Virus record (IMG/VR): IMGVR_UViG_3300009082_000959
Source: a virus
Lineage: Duplodnaviria; Caudoviricetes
Length of the DNA stretch: 64,000 nucleotides
Direction: 5' to 3' (one strand)
Shown here: positions 37,491 to 64,000 of the stretch, one piece after another
How positions within the stretch are numbered: position 1 is the stretch's first letter
How the letters are laid out: each line of letters starts with the position of its first letter
Program-made: the position numbers and the translations under genes
Notes under the pieces: generated by a model
Told to the model about the DNA's origin: nothing
The model's database searches: none
What the model saw: only the letters and a program-made list of their open reading frames with translations

Positions 37491-37493
37491 ACA

Positions 37494-44627: not shown

Positions 44628-46502
44628 ATGTCAGCAAACAAGTTATTTACAACGGCAGAACAATGGTTTGAAGACCTAAAAAAAGAAGTCTTAAAGATAG
44701 ACCCAGTGTCGTTTGCTGAAAACTATCTTGTCGTAGACGGAAAACCACTAAAACTTGGCGGCGGGACCGGCTGGAAATACCTTACTGATATTTACAGGTA
44801 CATGGCAACGAAAGCCATGGAAGAAGATGGGAAACCCGTAGTATGTGTTAAGGGTCGTCAGGTAGGCGCAACAACTGCCGCCACTGCACTTGAACTTTTT
44901 TTTTGCACCAGCGGGCTATACGGAACATCTCCAAATAAACCACCAATAAGACTTCTTCATTGTTTTCCTGCACTAGCTCTTGTGCAAAAATTCGCAAAAG
45001 ATAAATTAAGTACAATGATGAGAACATCAAAGGATAATTATATCCTTAATCATTCTCTTGGCTACGACGCTGAATCAAAGAAAAAGAGAATTGATGTTCC
45101 AGAAGATACTCTCACAGAAAAACAATTCACCAATGAAAATAGGCTTTGGGTTGATTCCAACGCCAATGATGCTCAAAGACTTCATGGTATGTCTTTGGAT
45201 GGTATTTTCTATGATGAGGTTCAGAGAATGAACCAAGATGACATAGGAAATAGCAAAAGAACCCTAACATCTGCTCGATATGGGCCCCGCGGACAAGGAA
45301 TCCAGATGTATTTTGGCACTCCTTTGCAGCGCGGTTCAAATTTTCACAAAATGTGGGAATCCTCTGACAAAAGATATTATCATCTTGGGTGTGAAAATTG
45401 TGGTCATTATTTTATGCTATATTCTCCTGGGAATGATGATTGGGAGAAAATATGGCTATATGCTAATGTTGTGGCTTGTCCAAAGTGTCACCACGAACAG
45501 GATAAAGTTGATGCAATAGAGCGCGGTAAATGGATTCCAATGCAACCAGTTCTGCCAGACGGAAAGGAACCACAGTATGTTGGATTTCATTTTAATCAAT
45601 TGCTGATACCAAATTTTCATAAAGAAACGGTCATTAAAGAAAAACCAGGAATACATCCAACAAACTCAGAGCGCATTTGGCAAAACGAAATATTAGGAGA
45701 GTTTTACAGTGGTGAAGATTTGCCAATGTCGGAAGAAGAAATATATAAGTATTGTAGAGATATAGACAGAAGCATTTCATTTGGAGGCCCAGGCACATCC
45801 ATAAAAAGAGTGCAAAGCAACAAGATTTATTCTTCGAGTAAAATTCCCACTTTTTTGGGCATCGACTGGGGTGGTAAAATAGACGATCCAAATTCCAAGA
45901 TAGGAAAATCGTTTTCTTGTATGGCAATTATATCTGTTGATAAGGATGCGGTAGTGAGAATAGAGAATGCATTTAAACTAAAAAAGAATGATTTGCAACA
46001 CAAAAAAGATGTAGTAAGGGAAATGTTCAGAAGATTTGATATCAATTGCGCTGTCGCAGACTTAGGTCATGGTAATGATATAGTTCCAGAGCTTCAGGGG
46101 GAATTTGGAAACAGGTTAATAGGAAGCATAAGCAGTGGTAGTCTAACTAATCCAACGAAATATGACCCAGAGGAACTAAGACTGATTATAAATCATCACG
46201 TATTACTGGAAGATTTATTCGCGCATATGAGAAAGGGTAAAGTATTATTTCCATGGAAAAGTTATGAGCAAATTCAGTGGCTTATAGAGCACTGCTGTTC
46301 AATGGAAAAAGAAATACACACAGTTCAGGGTCGAGTCATATCAAGATTTGTAAAGGGTACCGGACCCAACGACGGTCTTATGGCTCTCCTATATGCCTAT
46401 TTGGCGTATAAATTTTATCTAACGCAAGGGTTTACGATAAAGGCCCACCAACTAAATGCAAAAAGTGCCGGACCAATATTGGCTTATTTGCCAAGTTTTT
46501 AA
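44628..46502 (+). CDS. terL: Terminase large subunit
   Basis: KGRQVGATT Walker A variant, IFYDE Walker B, FGTP, CENC...CPKC, nuclease GIDWG. Confidence 0.9.
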   Translation: MSANKLFTTAEQWFEDLKKEVLKIDPVSFAENYLVVDGKPLKLGGGTGWKYLTDIYRYMATKAMEEDGKPVVCVKGRQVGATTAATALELFFCTSGLYGTSPNKPPIRLLHCFPALALVQKFAKDKLSTMMRTSKDNYILNHSLGYDAESKKKRIDVPEDTLTEKQFTNENRLWVDSNANDAQRLHGMSLDGIFYDEVQRMNQDDIGNSKRTLTSARYGPRGQGIQMYFGTPLQRGSNFHKMWESSDKRYYHLGCENCGHYFMLYSPGNDDWEKIWLYANVVACPKCHHEQDKVDAIERGKWIPMQPVLPDGKEPQYVGFHFNQLLIPNFHKETVIKEKPGIHPTNSERIWQNEILGEFYSGEDLPMSEEEIYKYCRDIDRSISFGGPGTSIKRVQSNKIYSSSKIPTFLGIDWGGKIDDPNSKIGKSFSCMAIISVDKDAVVRIENAFKLKKNDLQHKKDVVREMFRRFDINCAVADLGHGNDIVPELQGEFGNRLIGSISSGSLTNPTKYDPEELRLIINHHVLLEDLFAHMRKGKVLFPWKSYEQIQWLIEHCCSMEKEIHTVQGRVISRFVKGTGPNDGLMALLYAYLAYKFYLTQGFTIKAHQLNAKSAGPILAYLPSF

Positions 46503-47192: not shown

Positions 47193-50100
47193 ATGGAAAT
47201 ACGAAGAGGTCCATGGAAACCTGCTACAACCAATAAAGTAGCAACAGTAAAATCCAGTAGGTTCGGTGCGCGTCCAGCAACTGTTCTTAGTCCTGGTGTA
47301 TCAAATTCAGAGCACCATTTGGCTAATCGGCAGGCAGATACTGGCGCTATTCCCGAAAAAGTGTCAGAGTTTAGACAGGCAGAAATAATTAGAGCGACAG
47401 GATCCTCAAACAACCAAATCAAAGAGTCGCCTGCTCCATTATTATTATATAGTAATTCGTTCAAAAAATCTCAAGAAATAAAAGAAAATTTCCTGAGAAA
47501 AAGTGCCGCGTCTGTGACTTCTGGTGGATATAGTTCTGCTGGCGGCGGAACAACCATACAGGCACCAGAAATATATTCTCCACTATTTCAAATTGCAAAC
47601 CTACAGCTTCCGCGCGAAAGAATAACAATGAATGCGTGGAATAGAAATTTTTATGATACACATCCATTGGTTCACAACTGCATTAATTTGCACGCAACTT
47701 ATCCAATTAATAAAATAAACATTAAGTGCAAAGATGGCAAAATAGAACAATTTTTTAAGGATATGGCAGAGAACATAGACTTAATAGGTGTTTTGCAGGG
47801 AATGGCACTTGAGATTTTTAAGATTGGTGAGTGTTTCCCCTATGCCGAGTTGGATGAAAGAACTGGTGCTTGGAAAAGTATCGTAATTCAAAACCCAGAC
47901 TACATCCACATAAAAACATCTGTATTGGGAGGTGATCCAGTAATATCACTATCACCAGATGCGGCACTAAAACGATTGGTTCAAAGTAATAATCCAGCAG
48001 ACATACAATTAAGAAGCCAAATAGACGATGAAATTCTATATCACATTCGTAAGGGAAACAACATTCCTTTGGATAATTTTCACATAAGTCATTTGGCCCT
48101 TAAATCAGCTCCCTACGATGTGCATGGAACATCTCCAATAGTTACTGTCTACAAAGATCTTATGCTGTATGACAAACTTAGGGAGTGTTATTCTTCCGAT
48201 ACAGAAGTTTTGACTGATTCTGGTTTTATGAATGGTCTTGAATTGTCATTAAAGTATAAGAACAGTAATCAAAGCGATTTGCCATCTATTGCTTGTTTTA
48301 ATTCAGAAACAGAGATGGTTGAGCATCATAAACCAATAAAAACACATATATCAGAATATAATGGAAATATGTATAGGTTTAAGGGTAAAAAAGTAGATAT
48401 TCTCGTTACACCAGAGCATCGTATGTGGGTCAATAAGAACAAAAAGACTGGTTGGTCTGGATGGCATTTTGAACAAGCAAAGGATGTTAGCCCGTCCTAC
48501 TGGTACAAGTTTAGATGCCACGCAAAATACAATGAAGGCGAAAAGGTTGAATTTATTGATGTTCTTGGTAAAAAAATACCATCGGAACTTTACATGAAGG
48601 TTTTGGGACACATAATTTCGGAAGGATGTGTTTATCAAAGTTATAAAAACGGAAGATATGATAATAATGTTTCTATATGTCAAAATATAGAATCTAAATA
48701 TCAACAAAATATGAGAAATAATTTTAAGCAGTTTGCTGAATTATTGGGGAAAAATCTCGTAGAAAATACTAAGGTGGTTGGGTCTGGGTTTAGTGCACAT
48801 TCTCCAAAAAATAAGTGGGAAGCATTAGTGAGTGGTAAGGATTTAGTAAATTACTTCAAAAAAGAAATTGGAACAAATGATGTTTGTAATTCCGGAACCA
48901 AAAGAATTCCTAGGTGGATATTTGGACTACATTCTGATTTGTTAAAGTGTTTGTTGGAATCATTAATGGAGGGCGACGGGCATTTTTCAAGTAGTTTGTA
49001 TAATACAACATCAAAAGGCTTTCGTTATGACACTGGCTCAAAACAACTAGCAGATGATGTATATGAGTTAGTCTATCGCCTTGGATTTGTTCCGTTATTG
49101 CGAACAGTAGATAGGACTGGAGAAAATACTGGGAAAAATTTATTAGAATACTCTGTCTCTTGGTCAAACACACATTATGGCCGTGAGCCGCGTGTGTATG
49201 GAAAATCAGATTCAAAGCATCACGGTGCCCATATTGGTCAAACAGATTATGATGGTTTAGTTTGGTGCTTCGAAGTTCCTACTGGATTATTTATAACACG
49301 CAGAAATGGCAAAATAACTATTCAGGGAAACTCTAAATATGCACAGGCTGATAGCCTTGTAAATCCAATTACACTAATAAAAGTTGGTGGGGCTGGAGAA
49401 GGAGAATACAAAGCAACCGGTGATGACTTGGAGAAATGGCGTCAAATAATGGAGTGTCATGATGAAGAGACCGAGGTATTGACTGACCACGGTTTTAAGA
49501 AGTTTTTTGATGCAATTGATTACACAAGGAGCGATGATGTTGCTGTTTACACTGCATCACCAAAGACTGGAATAAAAATAGCTTGTTTTAATAATGATAC
49601 AAAACAACTTGAGTATCATATTCCATCCAGAGCTACTTTATATGATTATTCTGGAGAAATGTATCATTTCAGTGGCGGAAAATTAGATATCAAAGTTACA
49701 CCCAATCACAGAATGCTTGTTACAAGAAAACTAAAGAAAGGTTGGTCTAATAGTGAGATAATTACTGCTGAAAACCTTTCACTGGGGACACACTATAGGT
49801 TTAGGTCAGTCGCAAAATTCAACGGTGAAGAAAAAGAATCAATTAATGTTTGTGGGAAAAGTATAAAAACTGATGATTATTTGGAATTTTTGGGAAATGT
49901 TATAAGTGAGGGATATGTTTGTAAGATAAATGACAAGTATTATAATAGCATAACATTATATCAAGAAAATTGTTCTCCAGAAAAAAATAGTATGGAAACC
50001 AATTTAGAAAAAATAGCAAATTGTTTTGGGAAAACCATACAATCAAAAACAATTGATAATAGCCATACTCCATTTTCCGGCACAAATACAAGCACGATGT

Positions 50101-51422
50101 GGCGAGGAATTCTGTGCTCATCTGTTTTAACCAAACATTTGTTTGAAGAAATAGGTGAAAACGGAAAATGTAATTCGCACAACAAACGCATTCCAAGGTG
50201 GATTTATTCTCTATCTACACGACAAATGAAAATACTTATTAATTCTCTTGTCGCAGGAGATGGAACAAAATACACAAGTAAAACTGGTAAGAGTGGATTT
50301 AAATATAGTACAATATCTGAAAATTTGGCAAAAGACCTACATGAATTAGTGTTTTTGGCCGGGTTTGCTCCAAAAGTATATAAAACAAAGAATGGTCAAG
50401 GAAAAGACTATTGGCTTGTTACCTGGACTGAGAGTGGCAAGGGATCATTCCCGCATTTCGGTGGAGTATCAAATAAAAGAGAACAACAACTCACTAAAGA
50501 GCAATATAATGGTAAGGTTTGGTGCTTTACTGTTCCAACAGGATTATTTGTCACCAGACGAAACGGTTTAATTACAATTCAGGGTAATAGCGCTGAGTAT
50601 GATAAAAACTTTAAGATAATTACTCATGCAGGCGTTACGGTTGAAAGAGTTGGTGCTAATGGATCAATATTAGATATAAACCCAGACATGCAGGCTATTT
50701 TAGATAATATTTTGTACGGTCTTATGGTTCCAAAAGCGGTAGTGACACAGGAAGGTTCGTCTTTCAACAGCGCAACTGTTGGTCTAGAAGTTCTTAGGCA
50801 GCGCTACGAGGCTTTTAGGAACATGATGTCGCAGTGGCTCATTAAAAAGATATTTGCTCCAATCAGCGAAATACAAGAATTTTATGAGTATAAAGATGGG
50901 GATAAAAAACTTATTGTCCCAGACATTGAGTGGAATAGAATGATATTGTTTGATATGGATAACTATATCAGTGTATTAAACGGATTGGTCAAAGAAAAAG
51001 CAGTATCCAAGACTACACTTTTTAGAAGCCTTGGTCTAAACATCGATGAAGAGAATAGACTTCGTAAGGAAGAACTAATAAAAGAAGCTATAATAGGAAA
51101 AGAAACAGCTATTCTAAATTCAATGACTCTTGGTGCCTTGCGCTCACTAAAGGCAGAGGACGATATAATAGAACCAACAGACCAGGTTTCTCTACCTGGG
51201 ACACCTGGTTCAGAGGAATCAGGAATACCTGGAATGACTCCTCCTGGCGCCGGCGGATTAGGCGGTGGGGGTCTTGGTGGCTCTCCAATGCCTCCAATGG
51301 GCGGACTTGGCGGCGGCCTAGGTGAGCTTCCAACAGAGGGCCTTGGCGGCCCTGAAGCTCCTGCGGGCGGTGGAGAAACACCTCAAAGCCCAACGCCAGC
51401 ACCTACATCACCAACACAATAA
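47193..51422 (+). CDS. Portal protein containing two inteins (about 649 aa after splicing)
   Basis: Position after terL; extein motifs PEIYSPL, IGECFPY, IQNPDYI; Gly/Pro-rich tail; the portal call rests mainly on context. Confidence 0.8.
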   Translation: MEIRRGPWKPATTNKVATVKSSRFGARPATVLSPGVSNSEHHLANRQADTGAIPEKVSEFRQAEIIRATGSSNNQIKESPAPLLLYSNSFKKSQEIKENFLRKSAASVTSGGYSSAGGGTTIQAPEIYSPLFQIANLQLPRERITMNAWNRNFYDTHPLVHNCINLHATYPINKINIKCKDGKIEQFFKDMAENIDLIGVLQGMALEIFKIGECFPYAELDERTGAWKSIVIQNPDYIHIKTSVLGGDPVISLSPDAALKRLVQSNNPADIQLRSQIDDEILYHIRKGNNIPLDNFHISHLALKSAPYDVHGTSPIVTVYKDLMLYDKLRECYSSDTEVLTDSGFMNGLELSLKYKNSNQSDLPSIACFNSETEMVEHHKPIKTHISEYNGNMYRFKGKKVDILVTPEHRMWVNKNKKTGWSGWHFEQAKDVSPSYWYKFRCHAKYNEGEKVEFIDVLGKKIPSELYMKVLGHIISEGCVYQSYKNGRYDNNVSICQNIESKYQQNMRNNFKQFAELLGKNLVENTKVVGSGFSAHSPKNKWEALVSGKDLVNYFKKEIGTNDVCNSGTKRIPRWIFGLHSDLLKCLLESLMEGDGHFSSSLYNTTSKGFRYDTGSKQLADDVYELVYRLGFVPLLRTVDRTGENTGKNLLEYSVSWSNTHYGREPRVYGKSDSKHHGAHIGQTDYDGLVWCFEVPTGLFITRRNGKITIQGNSKYAQADSLVNPITLIKVGGAGEGEYKATGDDLEKWRQIMECHDEETEVLTDHGFKKFFDAIDYTRSDDVAVYTASPKTGIKIACFNNDTKQLEYHIPSRATLYDYSGEMYHFSGGKLDIKVTPNHRMLVTRKLKKGWSNSEIITAENLSLGTHYRFRSVAKFNGEEKESINVCGKSIKTDDYLEFLGNVISEGYVCKINDKYYNSITLYQENCSPEKNSMETNLEKIANCFGKTIQSKTIDNSHTPFSGTNTSTMWRGILCSSVLTKHLFEEIGENGKCNSHNKRIPRWIYSLSTRQMKILINSLVAGDGTKYTSKTGKSGFKYSTISENLAKDLHELVFLAGFAPKVYKTKNGQGKDYWLVTWTESGKGSFPHFGGVSNKREQQLTKEQYNGKVWCFTVPTGLFVTRRNGLITIQGNSAEYDKNFKIITHAGVTVERVGANGSILDINPDMQAILDNILYGLMVPKAVVTQEGSSFNSATVGLEVLRQRYEAFRNMMSQWLIKKIFAPISEIQEFYEYKDGDKKLIVPDIEWNRMILFDMDNYISVLNGLVKEKAVSKTTLFRSLGLNIDEENRLRKEELIKEAIIGKETAILNSMTLGALRSLKAEDDIIEPTDQVSLPGTPGSEESGIPGMTPPGAGGLGGGGLGGSPMPPMGGLGGGLGELPTEGLGGPEAPAGGGETPQSPTPAPTSPTQ
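48186..49331 (+). mobile_element. Intein 1 with LAGLIDADG endonuclease (382 aa)
   Basis: E|CYSSDTEVLT ... VWCFEVPTGLFITRRNGKITIQGN|S; LGHIISEG and LMEGDG motifs. Confidence 0.92.
49455..50588 (+). mobile_element. Intein 2 with LAGLIDADG endonuclease (378 aa)
   Basis: E|CHDEETEVLT ... VWCFTVPTGLFVTRRNGLITIQGN|S; LGNVISEG and LVAGDG motifs. Confidence 0.92.
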
Positions 51423-51431
51423 GGAAGCACA

Positions 51432-52187
51432 GTGTCTAAAAGACTCACAAGCAATAAAGTAGAAAGATCTATGTATCAACAGTGGTATTATGAAAACAAT
51501 AAAGACGAAATCACACAATATAAAAAGGCATATAACAAAAAAAATAAAAACAAAATAGCGGAAGAACAAAAACTATATTATGAAAATAATAAAGAGAAAA
51601 TAAAATCATATAAAAAGCAATATTACTTAGATAATAAAGACAAAATATCAGAGAAACAAAAACTATATTATGAAAACAATAAAGAGGTTATCGCAGAAAA
51701 AGAAAAACAATACTATGATAAAAATAAAGAAACCATATTGGTAAAAAATAAACAATACTATGAGGAAAATAAAGAAATAGTTTTAGAGAAAAATTCGGCG
51801 TATCGAAAAGAGCACAAAACAGAAATCACAGAAAAACAAAAAGAACGCTTAGAAGTTGATATTAATTTTAAGTTGTCATGTAGGTTGCGAACAAGACTTA
51901 GTGGTGCTTTAAAAAATAATCGCAAATGCGGTTCTGCAGTTAGTGACTTGGGTTGTTCAATATCAGAATTAAAAATTTGGTTGGAACAGCAATTTTATAA
52001 TCATTCTTATACTGGCGAACCTATGACTTGGGAAAACTACGGAGAATGGCATATAGATCACATTTTGCCTCTTTCTAAATTTGATTTAACTGACAAAACA
52101 CAATTATTGAAAGCTTGTAATTGGTTTAATCTACAACCTCTTTGGGCCGAAGATAATTTAAAGAAATCAGACAAAACAAAACAATGA
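51432..52187 (+). CDS. HNH homing endonuclease with 15-aa repeats (no N-terminal zinc finger)
   Basis: About eight repeats; WHIDHILP...NLQPLWAEDN. Confidence 0.87.
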   Translation: MSKRLTSNKVERSMYQQWYYENNKDEITQYKKAYNKKNKNKIAEEQKLYYENNKEKIKSYKKQYYLDNKDKISEKQKLYYENNKEVIAEKEKQYYDKNKETILVKNKQYYEENKEIVLEKNSAYRKEHKTEITEKQKERLEVDINFKLSCRLRTRLSGALKNNRKCGSAVSDLGCSISELKIWLEQQFYNHSYTGEPMTWENYGEWHIDHILPLSKFDLTDKTQLLKACNWFNLQPLWAEDNLKKSDKTKQ

Positions 52188-52459
52188 TAGATATTTTTAC
52201 TAAATTAGATAGTCTTATAAACTATGATGATAATTATAGTATTCTCAAAGCTTTTTCTACTTTGGAAAAAGAATTTAATATGTGTGTTACCAGGAAAGAC
52301 AAAAGATATGCCTATCAAATAGTTTATGCTGCAAACAAATTAGCAGGAAAACTATCATTATTGTTTGGTAATAGTGGGGTTTATTCTTCTGAAAAATTGG
52401 TAAAAATATCATCTGAGCTAGTTAGGAATTTTGGTTTCAGAATAAACAAAATATTGTAG
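52184..52459 (+). CDS. Hypothetical protein
   Basis: ATGA overlap; fills the gap before the giant ORF. Confidence 0.6.
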   Translation: MIDIFTKLDSLINYDDNYSILKAFSTLEKEFNMCVTRKDKRYAYQIVYAANKLAGKLSLLFGNSGVYSSEKLVKISSELVRNFGFRINKIL

Positions 52460-52466
52460 GTAAAAT

Positions 52467-55400
52467 ATGCTATTCAATAATTTTAAAATTTTATCAAAAC
52501 GCGCCAAAGTTGTCAGTGATAAACCTGCATACAAAGACAAACAAGAAAGTGACAGCGGGAACACAATTTATCACTATGACGAAAAACATTTATCAAAACG
52601 CTGGCAACACAAGCGAGATAAGGTAAAAAATCTCGAAAAAAATGTAAAGAAAATACGAGAACAATATGAGAAGGATTTAAGTTCAGATGATCCCAGAACA
52701 CGCGCTATTGCTGCTGTTGTTGGTGTTATAGATGATACGGCCGCGCGCGTTGGAAATCCTGACTCTATTAAAGATCATGACACATATGGTATAACTACGC
52801 TAAAACTAAAGCACATTTCGTTTAGCGGCGGCAAAGCAAAACTAAAATTCCCAGGAAAAGACAATGTTAATCAAGACCTTACTGTTGATAATAAGAAAGT
52901 CATTAAGGTCTTAAAAGAACTTACCAAAGACAAGAAAAAAGATGATTTCCTTTTTGAGGTTGATGGGAAAAGAATTTGGGACCGTGCTATCAATAGATAT
53001 TTGTCTCCCTTTAAGATTAGTGCAAAGGATTTGCGCGGTTTCCATGCCAATCGTTTAATGAAAGAGTTACTGAAGAAAAAAGACTTTGACGAGGCTTTAG
53101 AGGAAACGGCCTCCATTGTGGGTCATGAAAAAGCAACGCTCAAAAATCAATACCTTTTACCCGAATTAGTCGAAAAATACGAAGGCAAAAAGAAAGATGC
53201 TAGCATAATGCGTTTATCAAAACGCGCTGAACTCACACCAGAAGACTTGGCTTGGGTTAATAGCATTAAGGGTTTGACTGCTGATGTTCCTTCTGCGCCA
53301 GCAACACAAACAGGTGGCGTAAAAATAAACAGTTTAATACTAGCTGCTTGGCAAACTTTATTACCATTTTTGCCAAAGGGTTCTGTGATTACTTCCGGAG
53401 AAAGAACGGCAGATGATCAAAAACGAATCCTGGAACACTATTGGCAAAAAGCAACTGGCCAAAAAATACCAGATAAACTTAAAGCCAATGATAGCGTATG
53501 GTTCCAAGTATCTAAGTCTCTTAAAGAGGACTATGGTTATATAGTTGGACCTCCGAAAACAAATGATCCTTATTCTCACTTGAACGGAAGAGCACTTGAT
53601 GTTTCTGGTGCAAACTTAAATCAAATTGCCAATATAGCGGCTTCTGTATCAAACAACCCAAAATTACCAGTAAAATTTAGAAAACCAGTAATAGAGAAGC
53701 AAAACAATTGTGTTCATCTGGGAATAGAGAACGCAGAATATAATCCTGCGGCAATTAAAGAAGTATTAAGTAGCGGATTGGGAGTTACTGCATCTATATC
53801 TGTGCGTGCAAATAAATTTTTGGATGAAATGGGTTTTGGTCTTGAAACAGAACAGGGTGATTTATTTGAGAAATCACCAATATTCAGGCATTATGATGGC
53901 TACCAAACATACAAAATTCATGATATTAGCGAAACAGAAGCTAGCAAATTAGCAAAGAGTGAACCAGACGAATTCTTTTATCGCGGACTACACAAAGAAT
54001 ACGCTAATCTTGTTCCTGGTGCTTTACGTAGCATGATACAATCGAATGCAAAATTTTTCTTTGTATTTGATTATCACAAAGATGAAAAATATTCAGACTT
54101 GTTAATTTTGGCCGCCGAACTATTATCTCAACAGGACCCTAGGGCATTTTTCTATTTCGGCCTACATAAAAAGTTTCCAGAATTAGGCAGAGGTGCTGTT
54201 GTTCAGTTGATTGATACCAATCCGGACTCATTTTTCGATCTTGGTCTGGAAAAAGAATACAGCGATTTAGAGGGAAGTGCTGGTGCTGCCAGAAACATAA
54301 AAGACCCAAATAAAATTGAAATAGAAAAAGATTCTAATTTGAATAAAGCAGCAGAGGAAGACGACGAAGAAAAAAAGAAATTAGAGGAATATTTGAAACT
54401 TCGAGAAAAATATAAGCGATTATTTAAAGACAGAGACTATAAAGAGTTTCCACCAGAGGACCGCAAAAAGGAATTTTGGAAGCATCAATTTAATCCAAAG
54501 GAAATTGGTAGTTTTCCTAGTTTCTGGGAATATCCAAAAGAAGAAGACCCGGATCGTGAGGAAAAAGAAGAAGACCTTAAAAAAAGACGCAAACAGTACT
54601 GGCAGCACCAATTAAGTCCCACCCGGTGGCTTGGCTATGGCGCTATTCCTTTTTGGAAATATCCGAAGAGTTCTGTGATGCCAGTGCTATCAAAACGCGC
54701 AGAAGTCAATGACGTTGCTGGCGTATTTGCAGTATTGCCAAAAGAAATAGCAAAACAATTTAAGTCTCTTGGTGACCACGACAACAGTGATCCACACATA
54801 ACTGTGATTTTTTGCGGTAAAGTAAAAAAGAAAGATAGAAAGTTGCTGGAAGAAACTGTCAGAGGAGTAATAGAAAACTGGAAGCCCTTTAAAGCAGAAT
54901 TAGATAGCAAGGTCACTTATTTTCCTGCAACCAAAAATTCAGATGGCTGTAAAATAGCTAAAATGAGTGTGAAATCCAAAGAACTTCACAGACTGCACAA
55001 AGAATTAAAAGAAGCGATTGAAAGCGCCGGAATAGAAATCGATGATACATTTCCTGATTACAAACCACACGTGACATTGGAATATTTAGAAAAAGGTGCA
55101 ACAAAATACGAAGACGAAGTTCCGGAAGGCTCTTGGGAAATAGATTGTGTAGAAATTTGGGGAATTGGTAAAAATAGAAAAATTAAATTTGACAAGCACG
55201 AGAAGAAAGCGTGTCTATCAAAACGGGCATCATTCACAGAAGAAGAGGCGAAGGAACTGGCCGAAAAAGGTTCTGATACTTTTTTTTACTATCACCTACA
55301 GGAAACCTACCCACATCTCGCAGAACAGGCGGCGCGTAATCTAGCAAAAGTATCAGCATTTGATTTTTTTTATTACAGACTACACGAAACATACCCACAT

Positions 55401-58400
55401 CTTATAGAATACACAGTACAAAAGTTGGTAGAAGAGAATCCCAAAATGTTCTTTTTTCGTGGTTTTCACAAAACATATCCACATCTTACAGAACAAGCCG
55501 CCAAAAACCTAGTAGAAGAGGATTCTGGATATTTCTTTAGTTATGGACTACAGGAAACATTTCCACATCTTACAGAACAAGCCGCCAAAAGCCTAGCAGA
55601 AAAGGATCCTGATACTTTGTTTTTTAGGAAACTAGATAAAATTTATCCACAATTAGGTGAGTTGGCAGCCAAAAACCTAGCAGAAAATAAACCTGCCGAT
55701 TTCTTTTACTTCAAGCTGCATAAAACCTACCCACAAATAGGAGAACAGGTGGCCAAATACCTGGCAGAAAATAATATTAGTACATTCTTTCATTACAATT
55801 TACAAGAAATCTACCCAAAACAGGGCGAGCTACTATCAAAAAATCTAGCAGAAAAGGATCCTGATACTTTCTTTCGCAGGGAATTACACAAAATTTATCC
55901 GCAACTAGGTGAATTGGCAGCAAAGAGTACGGCAGAAGAGGATCCAAAAAAGTTCTTTCTTTTTGGATTACACAAAACCTATACACACTTTGCAGAATTG
56001 GCAGCAAAAGGCATTGCGGAAATCATTCCTGGTTATTTCTTTGATACTGAATTACATAAAATATACCCACAGTTATCAGAACAGGCTGCCGAAAATTTGG
56101 CGAAAGAAAATATTGTGTCCTTCTTTTATCGCAAAATACACGAAACCTATCCACATATCGCAGAACAAGCTGCCAAAAACCTAGCAGAAAATGATGAGGG
56201 AGAATTCTTTAAATTAAATTTGCAAAAAACTTATCCACAGTTTGCGGAACAACCAATAACAAATAGATTAAAAGCACAGAAACAATTTGATTACGAAAAT
56301 CCCGATCACAGAAATAGACCTCTTAAAGCAAAACAATTAGCCAGTAAAATGTATAATCAGGGATATAAAACCTACATACACACTAATGATTTAGATGATT
56401 TGGATGGAATCGGCAGTATTCCTGGGGAAATTTGTGTAAGTTCTTGGGACTTATCCAGAAAACTGTTTTCCTCAAGCCCAATGACTTACGCTGCAATTTT
56501 TGAGGGAAGACCTTCACATTTCTTTAATCAAGATGCTTGGTCTGACGTAGGTCAGGATGGCCTACGATTTTTGACAAGTATTGGGAGAGATAGGGACTTT
56601 TACGAAATGGATGAAAACCATGACGAAGCTTGGTTTAATCCACTAGCACCAGGAAACAAATTAGTTGGCTTTGCTTTAGTGGGAATACCGAAAGATCAAG
56701 AAACATATCAAGATGGAAAGAAAAAACTACAAAAACTGGCGGAGAAAAACGGAGTAGCGTATTTGGAGTTTGGAGAAAATCCTTGGGACTTGAAAAAAAT
56801 CAGAGAAAAACCTTTAATGAAAGAATATGAAAAACCAAACCCAATGATCAGCAAATATAAAAATCTACCAGAAATGAGAGACTACGCTAAACTGAAACTA
56901 TCAAAACGTGCCGAAGAGGAAACAACAATACAACTTACCGACAAAGAAAAACAAATCTTTGATGTTTTGCTTGAAACAATAAAGCATTTTAATTTAAAAT
57001 CCACCATTAGAGTTGCCGGCGGTTGGGCTAGAGATAAAATACTTGGGAAAAATAGTAAAGACATAGATATAGCAATTGATAATATGTCTGGTAAGCAGTT
57101 TGCCGAAAAAGTATTGCTATTTGCTCGCACGAAAAACATTCCAGTAAAATCAGTTGGAGTAATAGAGGCCAGACCAGAACAATCAAAACATCTCGAAACA
57201 GCTGTGGTTAATTTACTAGGCGAGAGTATAGACTTTGTAAATTTGCGCGCAGAAAAATATGATCCAGAAACCAGAATTCCAACGGCAGTTCCTGGAACTG
57301 CTCTTGAGGACTCATATCGTAGAGACTTGACCATTAATAGTTTATTTTACAATATTAATACTGGGAAAATAGAAGATTTGACCGGCAAAGGTATAGATGA
57401 TTTAAAAAATAAAATAATAAGAACGCCAGTTCCGCCGAAGGAAATTTGGTCACAGGTTGGAATTACAGACGAATCACAAGCAATTACTCCAAAGAAAACC
57501 TTTATGGATGACCCACTTCGTGTTCTTCGTGCAATTAGGTTTGCCTCAAGATACGGATTTTCTTTGGCACCAGAATTAATGGAAGCAGCAAAGGACCCCG
57601 AAGTTCAGGAATCATTTAAAAACAAAATATCTAGAGAGCGCATCGAGGCAGAATTAAGAAAAATGATAACTGGTCCAAATCCTGTTTGGGCTCTAAATTT
57701 AATAAACGAGTTGGGTTTTAGGTCTGAAGTATTAAAACTCCCAGAACAAACAAACTGGAAAACCGGTGATGAAGATATTTGGGGAAACATAATTCAAACA
57801 CTGGATAATTTACAAAGTATAATAAAAGAAAGAAATTTGGGTGAAGCAGACAAGTTCGTTATTAATTTTGCGGCATTCTTGCATGATGTTGGCCTACTTG
57901 ATCCAAAAAACCAAGACGCGAAAAAATTGGAGAAATCCATTGGACGATCTGAATCCAGCGTCGTAGTCGCAGAACATGTATTACGAAATTTGCCAGGCGT
58001 AAGGGTTGATGAAATAGAAAGAGTAAAGAAACTAATAGATGCCACCAAACTAATAGAAAACCAAAAACACGATTTGTCTGCTATTACACGAAAACAATTG
58101 GGTAATTTTGTTAGAGCAATAGGAGACGATTGGGAAAATGCAGTTGATATTTTGGCTGCACGAAACAAGGCCAACGAAGGATTTAGTCCAGAGTATTACA
58201 GTGGAATTAAAAAACAGGTAAAGGATTTTGGTCTTGAAAAAGCCCACACAATGAAACCGCTTTTGACTGGCGAAGAATTAATGAAATTGTTTGAAAGAAA
58301 GGGCGGAAAGTGGATGGGAGACCTAAATAGAGAACTAATTCAATGGCAGTTAGAAAATCCAAACGCAACGAAGGATGATGCAATTGTCGCAGCAAAAGAC

Positions 58401-60275
58401 ATTTATGGTAAGTTTGGGTTAGATAAAAAATCATCTCTTGGCCGTTTGTCTAAATTGGCTAGTGCTGGTTTTTCAGATAAAGATGTAATTGATTTATACA
58501 AATTTATGTATTTGCGAAACCAATTAGAAAGAAGAGGAGACCCGGAAAGCGATAGTTATATTGAGTATTTAGATGAAACTATGAATGATAAACTAAAGCA
58601 TATTTTTTATGTCCTGTCGACGGTATTTGAAAAATGGCTAAAAAGACATCGAGCTATGTTTGGTGATTTAAATAATCTAGAGAATTTTGAAACCGCCGTT
58701 GCATGGTATGTTGGTAATTTAATGGATCATGTGCATGAAAAAGACATCAACAAGGCGGAGCAATACTTACCACAGTCTCGTGATGAGGTTTTAAAGTGGA
58801 AAAATACATTTAATACAATACACGAAATATACGAAAATCTTGCAAAAGGTCCATCCAGAGACATGAATAGTAATTTCTCTATAATAAGTCGCGCAATTGG
58901 GGCATCACATATCCATGGTGATATGTTGTCGTATATTAAAGAAACAGTCGATGATCCAAACCAACAAATTACGCCAGAATTAATGTCTCAATTGACTTCT
59001 GGAAAACACGAAGATTTTAAAGAGTGGAACAAAGAACTGCGAAGAATTGGTTGTAAAAAATTACACTTATCGAAGAGAGCGTCTGTTTCTGAAGAAGAAG
59101 CAAAAGACCTAGCAGAAAAAGATCCAGATAGTTTCTTTATAGACAAACTACACAAAATATACCCCAAACTTGGTGGGTTAGCTGCAAAGAATTTAGCAGA
59201 AAAAGATCCTAATAAATTCTTTTCTAGATCACTACATATAACCTACCCACATCTTGAGGAATTAGCAGCCAAAAACCTATCAGAAAATGATCATTATAGT
59301 TTTTTTTATAATGGATTACACGAAATTTATCCGCAACTAGGTGAGCAAGCTGCCAAAAACCTAGCAGAAAATGATTTTCATGAGTTCCTTGCTTTTGGGT
59401 TACACAAAATCTATCCCCAAACCGCAGTTCAAGCAGCAAAAAATCTGTCAGAAAAAGATCCAGAAAATTTCTTTTATTTCGAACTACAGCAAATCTATCC
59501 ACAATTCGGGGCCCTGGCGGCCAAAAAGATAGCAGAAGATGATGCAGAGAAATTCTTTAAATTAAATTTGCAAAAAACTTACCCACAGTTTTCAGAACAA
59601 CTCATAAAAAACAGACTAAAAGCACAGAAACAATTTGACGAGGAAAATCCAAATCGCAAAAATAGGCCACTTAAAGCAAAGCAATTGGCTAATGAAATGT
59701 ATAATCATGGATATAAAACCTACATACACACTAATCACCTAGAAGATTTAGACGGAATTGGTAGTATTCCTGGGGAAATTTGTGTAAGTTCTTGGGATTT
59801 GTCTCGTAAGCTTTTTTCTGCAAACCCAATGACTTATGCTGCTATTTTTGAGGGGAAGCCTTCACACTTTTTTAATCAAGATGTTTATTCTAATATAGGC
59901 AAAGATGGCTTGCGGGTTTTGACAGACACCATGCGTGATGACACCTCTATTTACGAAATGGATGAAAACCATGACGAAGCTTGGTTTAATCCACTTACTC
60001 CGGGAAACAAACTGGTTGGTTTTGCTTTAGTGGGAATACCAAAAGACGAAAAAGAATACCAAGAAGCCAAGAAACAGCTACAAAAACTAGCGGAGAAAAA
60101 TGGAGTATCTTTCCTAGAATTTGGTGAAAGTCCCTGGGACTTGAAAAAAATCAGAGAAAAACCTTTGATGAAAGAATATGAAAAACCAAACCCAATGATC
60201 AGCAAATATAAAAATCTACCAGAAATGAGAGACTACGCTAAACTGAAACTATCAAAACGAACCAACATTGGTTGA
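52467..60275 (+). CDS. 2602-aa multi-enzyme polyprotein-like ORF (TopoIB, M15 peptidase, 2H phosphoesterase, repeat+ART-like x2, CCA-adding enzyme, unknown modules)
   Basis: Family motifs in each segment; LSKRA-type pentapeptides at aa 9, 250, 444, 625, 741, 917, 1478, 1994, 2201, 2595. Confidence 0.88.
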   Translation: MLFNNFKILSKRAKVVSDKPAYKDKQESDSGNTIYHYDEKHLSKRWQHKRDKVKNLEKNVKKIREQYEKDLSSDDPRTRAIAAVVGVIDDTAARVGNPDSIKDHDTYGITTLKLKHISFSGGKAKLKFPGKDNVNQDLTVDNKKVIKVLKELTKDKKKDDFLFEVDGKRIWDRAINRYLSPFKISAKDLRGFHANRLMKELLKKKDFDEALEETASIVGHEKATLKNQYLLPELVEKYEGKKKDASIMRLSKRAELTPEDLAWVNSIKGLTADVPSAPATQTGGVKINSLILAAWQTLLPFLPKGSVITSGERTADDQKRILEHYWQKATGQKIPDKLKANDSVWFQVSKSLKEDYGYIVGPPKTNDPYSHLNGRALDVSGANLNQIANIAASVSNNPKLPVKFRKPVIEKQNNCVHLGIENAEYNPAAIKEVLSSGLGVTASISVRANKFLDEMGFGLETEQGDLFEKSPIFRHYDGYQTYKIHDISETEASKLAKSEPDEFFYRGLHKEYANLVPGALRSMIQSNAKFFFVFDYHKDEKYSDLLILAAELLSQQDPRAFFYFGLHKKFPELGRGAVVQLIDTNPDSFFDLGLEKEYSDLEGSAGAARNIKDPNKIEIEKDSNLNKAAEEDDEEKKKLEEYLKLREKYKRLFKDRDYKEFPPEDRKKEFWKHQFNPKEIGSFPSFWEYPKEEDPDREEKEEDLKKRRKQYWQHQLSPTRWLGYGAIPFWKYPKSSVMPVLSKRAEVNDVAGVFAVLPKEIAKQFKSLGDHDNSDPHITVIFCGKVKKKDRKLLEETVRGVIENWKPFKAELDSKVTYFPATKNSDGCKIAKMSVKSKELHRLHKELKEAIESAGIEIDDTFPDYKPHVTLEYLEKGATKYEDEVPEGSWEIDCVEIWGIGKNRKIKFDKHEKKACLSKRASFTEEEAKELAEKGSDTFFYYHLQETYPHLAEQAARNLAKVSAFDFFYYRLHETYPHLIEYTVQKLVEENPKMFFFRGFHKTYPHLTEQAAKNLVEEDSGYFFSYGLQETFPHLTEQAAKSLAEKDPDTLFFRKLDKIYPQLGELAAKNLAENKPADFFYFKLHKTYPQIGEQVAKYLAENNISTFFHYNLQEIYPKQGELLSKNLAEKDPDTFFRRELHKIYPQLGELAAKSTAEEDPKKFFLFGLHKTYTHFAELAAKGIAEIIPGYFFDTELHKIYPQLSEQAAENLAKENIVSFFYRKIHETYPHIAEQAAKNLAENDEGEFFKLNLQKTYPQFAEQPITNRLKAQKQFDYENPDHRNRPLKAKQLASKMYNQGYKTYIHTNDLDDLDGIGSIPGEICVSSWDLSRKLFSSSPMTYAAIFEGRPSHFFNQDAWSDVGQDGLRFLTSIGRDRDFYEMDENHDEAWFNPLAPGNKLVGFALVGIPKDQETYQDGKKKLQKLAEKNGVAYLEFGENPWDLKKIREKPLMKEYEKPNPMISKYKNLPEMRDYAKLKLSKRAEEETTIQLTDKEKQIFDVLLETIKHFNLKSTIRVAGGWARDKILGKNSKDIDIAIDNMSGKQFAEKVLLFARTKNIPVKSVGVIEARPEQSKHLETAVVNLLGESIDFVNLRAEKYDPETRIPTAVPGTALEDSYRRDLTINSLFYNINTGKIEDLTGKGIDDLKNKIIRTPVPPKEIWSQVGITDESQAITPKKTFMDDPLRVLRAIRFASRYGFSLAPELMEAAKDPEVQESFKNKISRERIEAELRKMITGPNPVWALNLINELGFRSEVLKLPEQTNWKTGDEDIWGNIIQTLDNLQSIIKERNLGEADKFVINFAAFLHDVGLLDPKNQDAKKLEKSIGRSESSVVVAEHVLRNLPGVRVDEIERVKKLIDATKLIENQKHDLSAITRKQLGNFVRAIGDDWENAVDILAARNKANEGFSPEYYSGIKKQVKDFGLEKAHTMKPLLTGEELMKLFERKGGKWMGDLNRELIQWQLENPNATKDDAIVAAKDIYGKFGLDKKSSLGRLSKLASAGFSDKDVIDLYKFMYLRNQLERRGDPESDSYIEYLDETMNDKLKHIFYVLSTVFEKWLKRHRAMFGDLNNLENFETAVAWYVGNLMDHVHEKDINKAEQYLPQSRDEVLKWKNTFNTIHEIYENLAKGPSRDMNSNFSIISRAIGASHIHGDMLSYIKETVDDPNQQITPELMSQLTSGKHEDFKEWNKELRRIGCKKLHLSKRASVSEEEAKDLAEKDPDSFFIDKLHKIYPKLGGLAAKNLAEKDPNKFFSRSLHITYPHLEELAAKNLSENDHYSFFYNGLHEIYPQLGEQAAKNLAENDFHEFLAFGLHKIYPQTAVQAAKNLSEKDPENFFYFELQQIYPQFGALAAKKIAEDDAEKFFKLNLQKTYPQFSEQLIKNRLKAQKQFDEENPNRKNRPLKAKQLANEMYNHGYKTYIHTNHLEDLDGIGSIPGEICVSSWDLSRKLFSANPMTYAAIFEGKPSHFFNQDVYSNIGKDGLRVLTDTMRDDTSIYEMDENHDEAWFNPLTPGNKLVGFALVGIPKDEKEYQEAKKQLQKLAEKNGVSFLEFGESPWDLKKIREKPLMKEYEKPNPMISKYKNLPEMRDYAKLKLSKRTNIG
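55230..56252 (+). repeat. About 12 tandem 28-aa (84-nt) repeats
   Basis: Consensus YPQLxEQAAKNLAExDPxxFFxxxLHKT. Confidence 0.92.
56203..56908 (+). repeat. About 700-nt direct duplication; second copy at 59551-60259
   Basis: Near-identical DNA; the last ~120 nt differ at about one position and run through the LSKR codons. Confidence 0.92.
59082..59600 (+). repeat. About 6 tandem 28-aa repeats of the same family
   Basis: Same consensus as 55230-56252. Confidence 0.92.
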
Positions 60276-60319
60276 AATATACTAATAAAATCACATTTAT
60301 CAGTAGAAGGAGAGAGTTT

Positions 60320-61000
60320 ATGAAAAAAATCGCATCTGGCGCCGAGATTATGAGCACCATACTATCTTTTACTGAAGCACTCGAAGAAATGTATGAGCAT
60401 ATGCATTGGAGGGCTTCTGGACCAAATTACTACGGTGATCATCTTTTGTATCAGAGACTGTATGAAGACATAGAGGGCGAAATAGATGGAATAGCTGAAA
60501 AGGCAGTTGGTGTTTTTGGGCCAGATTCGATAGGCCCAAACAAAAATATTTCAGAAACAGCCAAAATAACTGAAAAACTTATTTCTGATACTGATACAGC
60601 AGAAAAATTTCCAGAGATAGCAATATCCGCAGAGGAAAAGTTTGTTGAATTGGTTTCTCGCGCGCTTAAAGAAATGGATAAAAGCAACGAATTAACCAAT
60701 GGCATAGATAATATGCTACAGGGTGTGGTAGATAGCCACGAAGGTCACTTGTATTTATTAAAGCAAAGGGCTAATAAAAAGGAATCAAGCACAGTCATAA
60801 GACTGTTTAAGTTGGCATACTATTTGGATAGAAAGTCCTTATACAACGAAGCACGAGAAATAGAAGAAGTTATGCTACAATTGGCAAAACGAGTGGGCAT
60901 AAATCAAGAAGAAATGGTATCACTGGCTGATGAATTGGATCAAATTGGGGATACTGTCGTAGCGGATAAAATAGATAATATGATTAAATCAAATAAATAA
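60320..61000 (+). CDS. Dps/ferritin-like protein with two C-terminal helical tags
   Basis: HW...H...Y...D..AE (HMHWRASGPNYYGDHLLYQRLYEDIEGEIDGIAEK); LLKQRA, then two tag copies; AAGGAG before ATG 60320. Confidence 0.78.
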   Translation: MKKIASGAEIMSTILSFTEALEEMYEHMHWRASGPNYYGDHLLYQRLYEDIEGEIDGIAEKAVGVFGPDSIGPNKNISETAKITEKLISDTDTAEKFPEIAISAEEKFVELVSRALKEMDKSNELTNGIDNMLQGVVDSHEGHLYLLKQRANKKESSTVIRLFKLAYYLDRKSLYNEAREIEEVMLQLAKRVGINQEEMVSLADELDQIGDTVVADKIDNMIKSNK

Positions 61001-61001
61001 T

Positions 61002-61376
61002 ATGCGTCCTCTATCAATTCGGCACAAAATAGCAACAATTGAAGCCTCCAAGTCTGGTGTCGGCGTAAGTGCTGGTGCGAGAAAATATATGAGAACCGCT
61101 ATGCCCGAATATAAGAGCGTTGGAAATGCTGAACTAAACGAGCTAATCGTGTTTGAGTTTTCAAAGTGCGCGCCGTGGAGCAGATTCAAACTAAATAAAA
61201 CACTAGATGGAATAGCCGAAATAAGAAAAAGTTCGAGGTTTGTATTCGTCGCTAGAATAAGAGATAGAGGGACATCGCAGTCTGGGTATGATATTATAAC
61301 GATACAACCAAACTCTAAAGAGGTTTCAGAAAAAATTAGAAAACTACGCCTACAGCCCGGTTGGGGCTTTGAATAA
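61002..61376 (+). CDS. Hypothetical protein
   Basis: Starts MRPLSIRHKIA; operonic. Confidence 0.68.
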   Translation: MRPLSIRHKIATIEASKSGVGVSAGARKYMRTAMPEYKSVGNAELNELIVFEFSKCAPWSRFKLNKTLDGIAEIRKSSRFVFVARIRDRGTSQSGYDIITIQPNSKEVSEKIRKLRLQPGWGFE

Positions 61377-61387
61377 CGGAGAACAAT

Positions 61388-61789
61388 ATGGAAATCCTTA
61401 AAAAACTAGCTACTTTGGCAAATGAACTTGATAAGATGGGGCTTACTGCTGAAGCAACTGAAATAGACCTTATAATTGAAAAGTTGGGCCAAAACGGAAT
61501 TGATAATGTTTTTGAGCAAATAAAAAATGAGATTACTCCGTTTATTCCAGCAGGAACGCTTAAATGGAATCCCAAAAAGCCAGTATTATCCCTTCGTCCA
61601 GTATTAGATGAGTATTATCCTGGATTATTTAGAAAGGGAATGACTGCGGACGGATTACTGGAGGCCATAAGAAATTCCAACAAAACAAAGACAAAACCAA
61701 CCACAGCTCCAATTGGTCAAACGAGAGACCCTGGACCAATTAAAGTCGATTTTCAAATGCCATCGCCTGGACCACAACCTAAACTATAA
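61388..61789 (+). CDS. Putative virion protein with N-terminal helical tag
   Basis: LKKLATLANELDKMGLTAEATEID; GGAG RBS. Confidence 0.78.
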   Translation: MEILKKLATLANELDKMGLTAEATEIDLIIEKLGQNGIDNVFEQIKNEITPFIPAGTLKWNPKKPVLSLRPVLDEYYPGLFRKGMTADGLLEAIRNSNKTKTKPTTAPIGQTRDPGPIKVDFQMPSPGPQPKL

Positions 61790-62685: not shown

Positions 62686-62699
62686 TAGGAGAGAGAACC

Positions 62700-63515: not shown

Positions 63516-63527
63516 AAGAGGACTAAA

Positions 63528-64000
63528 ATGATCACCAAACTTGTAAAACTAGCAAATCACCTAGACTCAATTGGAGAACACGATTTAGCAGACCAAATTG
63601 ATGCTATAGTAAAAAGCGCCGCATTGTTGAGCGCAAGAAATAGTTTAATTGATGCGCTTAAAAACGACGACACCAAAAAGGCCAATGACGCAATTATGGA
63701 ATTGGTGTCTCAAATTCCGCGCGGCTCTAATGCCGCTGATGAATTGGGTATTTCCAGCAAAGAATTCAAAGAACTTGCTAATGCCATACACACAGGTGAT
63801 CTTGAATCAGCGCGCAAAGTATTTAATGTTGGCAAAGCGGTAAGCAAGGACCCAAATAAAATAAATCCCTTTACAGGACAACCATGGCCATCCGGAGAAG
63901 TAAAAGAGGAACCAAAGCAGTCTGATACGGGTAAAAAGAAATATGAATTTACGGGGAAAGAAACATCCACAAGAGGGTTTGGTGGAGTAAAAGTAAAAGA
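63528..64000 (+). CDS. Tagged putative virion protein (runs off the window; absent from the ORF track)
   Basis: GAGGA RBS, ATG 63528; MITKLVKLANHLDSIGEHDLADQIDAIVKSAA; frame open to the end. Confidence 0.8.
   Translation, partial: MITKLVKLANHLDSIGEHDLADQIDAIVKSAALLSARNSLIDALKNDDTKKANDAIMELVSQIPRGSNAADELGISSKEFKELANAIHTGDLESARKVFNVGKAVSKDPNKINPFTGQPWPSGEVKEEPKQSDTGKKKYEFTGKETSTRGFGGVKVK

Follow-up and report, generated by a model that had tools for sequence, protein, structure and literature searches.

The head maturation protease of phage T4 frees a leader from small cargo proteins that are injected with the DNA; herpesvirus assemblin is a protease fused to a scaffold and cleaves after Ala at hydrophobic-x-A/S; and in RNA virus polyproteins, such as those with picornavirus 3C sites, one open reading frame (ORF) encodes many enzymes with short protease recognition peptides between them. 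The functions of T4 propeptides and the T4 capsid-targeting sequence have been described, the T4 cleavage code being L/I-x-E, and gp245 of phage SPN3US cuts at A-x-E, removing propeptides of 20-254 residues by several cuts per protein, ejection proteins included (PMC10052503). Polyvalent proteins of phages and conjugative elements combine two to fifteen unrelated domains in a polypeptide, are encoded next to virion genes, and were proposed to be delivered with DNA and then divided into units, as a rule by a zincin-like peptidase within the chain; the phage-type polyvalent domains include the 2H phosphoesterase (Iyer, Burroughs, Anand, de Souza, Aravind 2017; PMC5512222). The 64,000-nucleotide stretch of a Caudoviricetes phage analysed here (IMG/VR record IMGVR_UViG_3300009082_000959; hereafter the window) contains an ORF, P0001, in which unrelated enzyme modules are joined by the repeated peptide LSKRA, and close variants of this peptide are conserved at the joints of shuffled modules in a family of giant proteins. 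A first-pass annotation, made from the sequence alone, had read P0001 as a precursor that is packaged in the head and cut into injected enzymes.

P0001 runs for 2,602 codons without interruption. Its modules and motifs, in amino acid (aa) and window coordinates, are as follows.

52467..60275, + strand: polyprotein ORF (P0001), 2,602 aa, with 18 homologues
52491..52505, + strand: motif 1, LSKRA, aa 9-13, behind an 8-residue leader (scan; homologues begin M-x(1-11)-[LI]SKRA)
52506..53213, + strand: type IB topoisomerase (TopoIB) module, aa 14-249 (Pfam PF01028, E=1.9e-30, aa 47-240)
53214..53228, + strand: motif 2, LSKRA, aa 250-254 (scan; pLDDT <50)
53229..53795, + strand: LAS/M15-like zinc peptidase module (likely), aa 255-443 (invariant residues, fold matches)
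53796..53810, + strand: ISVRA, a decayed motif, aa 444-448 (aligned with ISKRA of homologues; pLDDT <50)
53811..54338, + strand: divergent 28-aa helical repeats, aa 449-624 (fold matches to generic alpha-solenoids only)
54339..54353, + strand: LNKAA, a possible remnant site, aa 625-629 (scan; pLDDT <50)
54354..54686, + strand: charged, Trp-rich, low-confidence spacer, aa 630-740 (model)
54687..54701, + strand: motif 3, LSKRA, aa 741-745 (scan; pLDDT <50)
54702..55214, + strand: 2H phosphoesterase module, LigT/CPDase-like, aa 746-916 (Pfam PF13563, E=9.5e-12; fold)
55215..55229, + strand: motif 4, LSKRA, aa 917-921 (scan; pLDDT <50)
55230..56249, + strand: about 12 tandem 28-aa helical repeats, aa 922-1261 (repeat analysis)
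56250..56897, + strand: domain X1, possible ART-superfamily fold, aa 1262-1477 (model pLDDT 78.9; weak fold matches)
56898..56912, + strand: motif 5, LSKRA, aa 1478-1482 (scan; pLDDT <50)
56913..58445, + strand: class II CCA-adding enzyme/tRNA nucleotidyltransferase module, aa 1483-1993 (PF01743, E=6.6e-25; phrog_2244, E=2e-37)
58446..58460, + strand: variant motif LSKLA, aa 1994-1998 (scan; ISKLA is used at 8/89 family sites)
58461..59066, + strand: module without a family, aa 1999-2200 (common to P0010 and P0011)
59067..59081, + strand: motif 6, LSKRA, aa 2201-2205 (scan)
59082..59597, + strand: six 28-aa helical repeats, aa 2206-2377 (repeat analysis)
59598..60248, + strand: domain X2, a duplicate of X1, aa 2378-2594 (84% aa identity to X1)
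60249..60263, + strand: LSKRT, aa 2595-2599, three residues ahead of the stop (scan)

A scripted scan reproduced every site of LSKRA and its variants given in the first-pass annotation, in an ORF that is open as described. Six exact copies of LSKRA are present in P0001 against 0.004 expected from the protein's own composition, and a six-frame scan of the whole window found LSKRA nowhere else. The repetition is at the level of the peptide and not of the DNA, since, as had been noticed at first reading, the codons vary from copy to copy (TTA/CTA for Leu, CGC/CGG/CGT/AGA for Arg, GCC/GCT/GCA/GCG for Ala); at the DNA level the ORF repeats nothing but the 84-nucleotide units that code the 28-aa helical repeats. 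Two other roles for the motif were considered and ruled out: it is not a DNA-level recombination or repeat signal, because its codons differ and only the 84-nucleotide arrays emerge as DNA repeats, and it does not mark internal translation starts, because no Met precedes the internal motifs and their first codon is often TTA/CTA, which is not a start codon.

The motifs fall between modules, as first claimed. The Pfam envelopes of TopoIB (aa 47-240), 2H (aa 769-879) and PolyA_pol/CCA (aa 1515-1975) sit between motifs and none crosses one. An AlphaFold2 model of aa 236-935 was computed from 29 aligned rows of homologous segments. In it, the sites at aa 250, 444, 625, 741 and 917 all have a predicted local distance difference test score (pLDDT) below 50 and lie between confident domains, and the site at aa 1478 likewise has pLDDT <50 in a second model; the structure prediction proposed as a check thus put six sites in linkers and none of them inside a fold. 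About 28% of the aa 236-935 model is below pLDDT 50, so that the placement of five of five sites in such stretches is unlikely by chance (about 0.002 by simple multiplication). ISVRA at aa 444 is a decayed copy, since it aligns with canonical ISKRA in homologues. LNKAA is less clear: three homologues have LSKRA/ISKRA about 20 residues further on, where P0001 is deleted, and the orthology of LNKAA is only possible. The C-terminal LSKRT came along when the repeat+X cassette was duplicated.

A search of 5.8 billion proteins found 18 giant homologues of P0001 (1,472-4,243 aa, with uninformative names), all of them from metagenomic contigs of up to 468 kb, and 15 of the 18 contain 3-12 copies each of [LI]SK[RL]A. 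At the 89 sites of the 16 motif-bearing proteins, S, K and A never vary; the first residue is I (48), L (40) or V (1), and the fourth R (81) or L (8). Identity between the modules across the family is only 35-65%. The motif belongs to the N-terminal edge of each module, because the residues downstream of it are module-specific (TopoIB, LAS, 2H and LigD-phosphoesterase each have their own conserved continuation) and the residues upstream are variable and K/S-rich. The comparison of homologous loci that the first-pass annotation had called for gave the same picture: module order differs among homologues and the motif is where BLAST segments start or break off, the 2H module of P0002 aligning from motif to motif and TopoIB starting at the motif in P0007, P0010, P0013 and P0014. 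The family cargo further includes a LigD 3'-phosphoesterase, a LigD Prim-Pol, an ATP-dependent DNA ligase and an HD domain, and the overall theme of the cargo would be nucleic-acid end healing plus wall lysis. A LAS-like module is present in 15/15 motif-bearing homologues and in 0/3 of the homologues that use other peptides. Among GenBank phages no record contains the whole protein and only single modules match; the TopoIB of LR745208.1 lies within a 508-aa protein without the motif. In one relative (L011:13206-19771) the polyprotein is found as two adjacent ORFs of 865 aa and >1,317 aa with six motifs each, the second of which begins within the CCA head domain; a frameshift, an assembly error or a real fission are all possible there.

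The same peptide is used as a leader. Almost every family member opens with M-x(1-11)-[LI]SKRA, and in 426 ORFs of 18 loci, polyproteins excluded, nine free-standing ORFs have the motif as an N-terminal leader against 0.18 expected from shuffles. Leader-bearing genes near the head module include a NUDIX gene (M-Y-ISKRA) and a 122-aa gene of locus L001, a 213-aa gene of G001 and a 240-aa gene of L004, and a recurrent coiled-coil protein of about 165-240 aa, encoded upstream of the terminase, has the leader in five loci. The window orthologue of the L004 240-aa gene (41255-41938) has no leader, which shows that the leader comes and goes in evolution. When six leader-bearing free-standing proteins were compared with the polyproteins by BLAST, no match that would indicate fusion or fission was found. 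A conserved protein of about 124 aa downstream of the polyprotein (61002-61376) opens with a motif-like peptide, which is LSIRH in the window and ISKLA, ISLRH or LSQRQ in relatives.

The three most distant homologues have no ISKRA, and each repeats a peptide of its own: IK[KR]LA at aa 7, 485 and 805 of P0017, with the TopoIB module from aa 804; RVAAR[WY] at aa 13, 1019 and 2073 of P0019, with the TopoIB module from aa 1032 and the peptide present in a neighbouring gene too; and WLRLA at three internal sites of P0018. In P0017 and P0019 the lineage peptides occupy equivalent positions (N-terminus and TopoIB joint), and a lineage-specific peptide at equivalent places is to be expected of a recognition signal that co-evolves. 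In the late proteins of the window (34.3-64 kb, polyprotein and HNH genes left out) the looser pattern hydrophobic-x-K-x-A occurs 28 times against 8.6 expected (3.3-fold, z=6.6), and it is not enriched in the early region of the window (15 against 17.8 expected). LSKRA, LSKLA and LNKAA all match this pattern, of which LSKRA would be a strict form; P0001 has 11 such sites, of which eight are module joints and three are inside folded domains. Another element recurs in the same neighbourhood, a helical tag L-A-x-x-L-D-x-x-G-x(4)-A-x-x-[IL]-D found in seven + strand ORFs (window 36510-38045 and 60272-64000) at positions 37023, 37521, 60923, 61415, 62599, 62727 and 63549, N-terminal, C-terminal or internal; it heads many small genes in every related locus, and its start, L-x-K-L-A, fits hydrophobic-x-K-x-A.

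The enzyme labels differ in how well they stand. Pfam and PHROG matches bear out the TopoIB, 2H and CCA labels of the first-pass annotation, and Pfam found no family on the segments of P0001 outside these three. TopoIB scores 106.4 bits with PF01028 against a cut-off of 23.7, with candidate catalytic residues visible in the sequence; the CCA module scores 88.3 bits with PF01743 against a cut-off of 23, with GG-x-x-RD and the DxD signature visible; and the 2H module, which is confident in the aa 236-935 model, scores 45.6 bits with PF13563 and has both H-x-T motifs. The 2H fold matches bacterial CPDase/LigT at Z 13.5-15.0 (drCPDase 15.0) and anti-CBASS Acb1 at 9.3, for which reason the modelled module seems closer to an RNA-end enzyme than to Acb1. 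The domain at aa ~286-435 is very confident in the same model, and the better fold matches of aa 277-424 are all LAS zinc peptidases at middling Z of 5.0-7.6 (VanXYg 7.6, VanYB 7.0, the T5 L-alanoyl-D-glutamate peptidase, an endolysin, 6.4, the DD-peptidase 1lbu 6.2, and the Ply500 and LysB4 endolysins). The M15 label of the first reading thus has the LAS fold and an invariant H-x6-D...H on its side, and no Pfam match; a PDB sequence-profile search with the module likewise gave nothing significant. In spite of the middling Z, aa 255-443 is likely an M15/LAS peptidase, given that 14 sequences have invariant T-S-G-x-R...D-Q, H-x6-D, a distal His and a Glu.

Domain X is rare, with 10 relatives among 1.84 billion representative proteins. 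The model of X1 has pLDDT 78.9 and a predicted template modelling score of 0.75, and its weak fold matches are CteC (Z 6.8), Tpt1, a tRNA 2'-phosphotransferase (5.8), four DarT (4.8-5.3) and Scabin (4.4), all below the caution line of Z 8; the best Foldseek E-value is 0.02. The catalytic triad of the ART superfamily is H-Y-E or R-S-E; domain X has conserved His, Glu and Asp-Glu residues, and Pfam gives no match. The "ART-like" label given at first reading is kept as a weak lead and not as a finding. X1 and X2 (X part plus motif) are 84% identical in aa, with 46 synonymous and 36 non-synonymous codon differences. The ESM Atlas was of no help with X1, and for aa 1999-2200 it offered no more than a weak link to DUF3644. 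The "W-rich module" of the first reading is a charged, low-confidence spacer in the model.

The polyprotein gene stands in a conserved head region, the other members of which in the window are as follows.

44628..46502, + strand: large terminase subunit (phrog_675, E=1.2e-57)
47193..51422, + strand: portal protein, 1,409 aa with insertions (phrog_16240, E=9e-43)
52184..52459, + strand: conserved 91-aa ORF, always between portal and polyprotein (loci of relatives)

The order in the window is terminase, HNH gene, portal, second HNH gene, conserved 91-aa ORF and polyprotein, and every relative examined keeps the order terminase, portal, ORF of about 100 aa, polyprotein, small proteins and a protein of about 1,250 aa. 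The head module is distantly phage G-like, since the window portal is 35% identical to the phage G portal gp14, as two blocks, and the capsid protein of a relative (G001) has 46-66% identity to phage G gp27. Phage G has just small genes between portal and protease, as has a more distant 472-kb relative, which makes the polyprotein a clade-specific insertion. For a 162-kb relative, a CheckV completeness of 40% suggests a genome of about 400 kb.

The window portal has 1,409 aa compared with 650-680 aa in most relatives, and contains PHROG matches to thymidylate synthase, terminase and PhoH that resemble intein or homing-endonuclease insertions; the portal of one relative (L003) also has 1,413 aa, with LAGLIDADG matches. 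Three HNH/endonuclease VII-like genes (42761-43999, 46515-47180 and 51432-52187) lie among the terminase and portal genes, where several relatives have none. The major capsid gene of G001 (L026:9353-12440 = G001 89353-92440) matches phage G gp27 as three separate pieces about 1 kb apart, with ORFs resembling helix-turn-helix proteins or homing endonucleases around and between them and two intervening sequences apparent; the ORF of the first exon is extended at its N-terminus by about 40 aa, among which is IVKYA. A separate 255-aa PolyA_pol/CCA-like gene (40241-41008) lies upstream of the terminase in all relatives and is distinct from the CCA module of the polyprotein.

An exact 44-nucleotide probe from the end of the window matched no viral or metagenome contig, and no record contains the exact protein; the protease-scaffold and capsid genes were accordingly examined in relatives. 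The gene of the protein of about 1,250 aa starts about 6.4 kb past the polyprotein in them, and the corresponding gene of the present phage would lie just beyond the end of the window. Residues 116-225 of this protein match phrog_18299, "head maturation protease" (E=1e-12). The protein also matches Gordonia and Burkholderia phage proteins annotated as capsid maturation proteases, and it is 34% identical (E=4e-29) to phage G gp19, which a 2025 study of phage G lists as the head maturation protease. Its neighbours in a language-model search (Atlas) belong to S78/S77/S80 clusters, and the remainder of the protein is coiled-coil or low complexity. KDH, VSMG and ELSLVxxGAD blocks are invariant in 28 homologues, and we take them to resemble the His block, Ser block and terminal strand of HK97-type proteases. 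These likenesses mark the protein as an HK97/S78-type protease (N-terminal domain) fused to a scaffold. It has 802 homologues in public data, and its three conserved [KR]-R-A-Y sites have K/R-R-A in common with the polyprotein motif. A PDB sequence search with the protease domain found nothing significant, and a predicted complex of this domain with a 41-residue linker segment scored 0.00, a result that counts neither way. Some homologues of the protease-scaffold protein (L025:13309-17106; P0029-P0148) have inteins (Hint/LAGLIDADG in Pfam), and the element ...RRAYWLGGGG(V/I)NEP... occurs twice in the protein, with the third RRAY near the C-terminus.

The reading that we favour, with a probability of about one in two, is that P0001 is a head-packaged precursor cut by the head maturation protease into a delivered kit for DNA/RNA repair and wall lysis. 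The chain would be made late and taken into the prohead, where an HK97/S78-like maturation protease would recognise the exposed [L/I]-S-K-[R/L]-A linkers as a strict hydrophobic-x-K-x-A code. Cutting would free TopoIB, the LAS/M15 wall peptidase with its repeat tail, the LigT-like 2H enzyme, two repeat+X (ART-like?) proteins, the CCA-adding enzyme and the module of aa 1999-2200, the scissile bond being either after Ala (as in herpesvirus assemblin) or after Lys (in parallel to the Glu position of the T4 code). Once freed, the enzymes would remain inside the capsid until they pass into the cell together with the DNA. There they may open the wall, relax the DNA and mend damaged RNA ends ahead of any phage gene expression; the polyproteins of relatives would add LigD-type modules for DNA-end repair.

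The motif, its conservation at shuffled joints, its position in linkers, its use as a leader, the gene context between portal and protease and the protease of the relatives are observed and all fit a processed polyprotein; from them we infer that the chain is cut, at which bond, that its parts are packaged and ejected, and what the enzymes do in the host. The precursor proposed by the first-pass annotation is thus partly supported. Several points weigh against this reading. The protease and major capsid protein genes are outside the window. The RRAY sites of the protease-scaffold protein lie within a conserved repeat, so that they may be structural elements instead of cut sites, and the protein has no [LI]SKRA except for ISKLA or MSKRA in 10/120 homologues. 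The Pfam models for S78 (PF04586), S77 and the HK97 capsid gave no match in four related IMG/VR contigs, although the S77 control was silent too and the S77 result is therefore uninformative. Two joints of P0001 have decayed (ISVRA) or may have done so (LNKAA), so strict cleavage at every joint is not maintained. Finally, the co-occurrence of the LAS module with the motif in all 15 motif-bearing homologues makes a different protease possible.

Another explanation of the motif is that it serves as a docking or targeting handle, for the capsid or for a chaperone or scaffold, inherited from leader-bearing genes that became fused into an intact multi-enzyme chain. Such a handle would behave as the motif does in travelling with the downstream module and in opening free-standing genes; the capsid-targeting sequence of T4 is a comparable N-terminal signal, the helical tag on many neighbouring ORFs implies that the phage uses portable tags, and plasmid polyvalent proteins can work uncleaved (PMC5512222). 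However, internal copies are needless for the targeting of one chain, yet their S, K and A are invariant at 89 sites in a family whose modules have diverged to 35-65% identity; the sites are in exposed, disordered linkers in the model; and a chain of 300 kDa is awkward to eject through a tail. We consider this explanation unlikely.

It is distinctly improbable that the motif is cut by the embedded LAS/M15 module, in cis or in trans, or by a host protease after entry. Proteases often recognise a dibasic K-R, and the LAS-like module is found in all 15 ISKRA-bearing homologues and in none of the three with other peptides, but this co-occurrence may merely reflect relatedness. Autoprocessing of polyvalent proteins by an embedded metallopeptidase was proposed by Iyer et al. 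(PMC5512222); here, however, the structural neighbours of the LAS module are all peptidoglycan/D-Ala peptidases and endolysins, a role that domains of this kind usually have in virions, and the enrichment of hydrophobic-x-K-x-A across many head-module proteins is what a head protease would predict. Least probable of all is that P0001 is a late cytoplasmic multi-enzyme for nucleic-acid maintenance, processed or not, that merely lies in the head gene block, for although such enzymes are also encoded outside the polyprotein (the 255-aa PolyA_pol-like gene at 40241-41008 and ligase genes in relatives) and we likewise infer the location of the polyprotein in the virion, its place between portal and protease is the same in all relatives examined, a wall peptidase is useful solely at entry or lysis, and the motif belongs to a code confined to late/head proteins.

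If the favoured reading of a head-packaged, protease-cut precursor is extended to the free-standing genes and to the related clades, [L/I]-S-K-R-A may be a portable code for cargo cassettes, by which any leader-bearing enzyme, free or strung with others, is taken up by the prohead and set free by the head protease. This extension is tentative, with the odds somewhat against it. In evolution the giant genes would then act as assembly lines that exchange modules at the motif, each related clade having its own peptide matched to its own protease, and each lineage would inject a toolkit predictable from its sequence (TopoIB, LigD-type DNA-end repair, tRNA-end repair, a wall peptidase and ART-like effectors) to act before phage expression.

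Should the motif mark the cuts of a protease, sequence alone could reveal which proteins are injected by the huge phages of a large, uncultured clade. The favoured reading, if true, would mean that a double-stranded DNA (dsDNA) phage loads its capsid by way of a polyprotein with pre-made topoisomerase and RNA/DNA end-repair enzymes, which could counter host nucleases (restriction, CRISPR, anticodon nucleases) at entry; that the specificity of a head protease is hydrophobic-x-K-x-A, which was not found described for phages; and that a natural modular system for packaging foreign proteins in capsids exists.

Among known systems, polyvalent proteins resemble P0001 in that TopoIB, the LAS peptidase, 2H, CCA, X domains and repeats are in one ORF among late genes. 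P0001 differs from them in that Pfam finds no zincin-like MPTase hub domain in it, its sole peptidase module having a LAS fold, and in the uniform five-residue junction peptide, which is a new element. The paper that defines the class (PMC5512222) does not contain the word 'linker', uses 'topoisomerase' once, and was not found to describe the architecture of P0001. The first-pass annotation, which knew of no described phage polyprotein with this cargo, calls for a qualification in that multi-enzyme proteins of this kind, some with 2H, are a known class. No description of LSKRA or of phage polyproteins with such a cleavage motif was found in the literature, and the 2025 multi-omics paper on phage G makes no mention of polyproteins or cleavage sites.

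T4 internal proteins are similar in the short N-terminal leader on head-region genes, but the T4 cargo is encoded by separate small genes, its code is hydrophobic-x-E in place of hydrophobic-S-K-R-A, and its gp21 protease is of S77 type where the relatives of the present phage have the S78-like/phage G gp19 type. In phiKZ and SPN3US (gp175/gp245), internal head proteins of giant phages are cut at a short motif, as would be the case here, but their substrates lose propeptides and are not strings of enzymes, and both motif and phage lineage differ. The T4 and phiKZ precedent invoked at first reading therefore holds for cutting at short motifs and not for the code, [LI]-S-K-[RL]-A matching neither L/I-x-E (T4) nor A/S/G-x-E (phiKZ, SPN3US). 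Herpesvirus assemblin is comparable in that the protease of the relatives is fused to a scaffold and that Ala as the likely P1 residue would match [KR]-R-A; we know of no herpesvirus-type polyprotein of enzymes. RNA virus polyproteins organise the expression of replication proteins, unlike the loading of capsid cargo proposed here in a dsDNA phage, which has no such need. The theme of nucleic-acid end healing (2H and CCA; in relatives LigD 3'-phosphoesterase, Prim-Pol, ligase and HD) is shared with tRNA repair by T4 Pnkp/Rnl1 and with bacterial LigD, but the T4 enzymes are expressed after infection and not pre-loaded, and P0001 has no ligase module. Multi-enzyme polyvalent proteins and head proteases that cut cargo at short motifs are thus already known, and what is apparently new is the uniform junction peptide that delimits swappable enzyme modules, the putative K-x-A specificity, and a cargo that would include pre-loaded TopoIB and CCA-adding enzyme.

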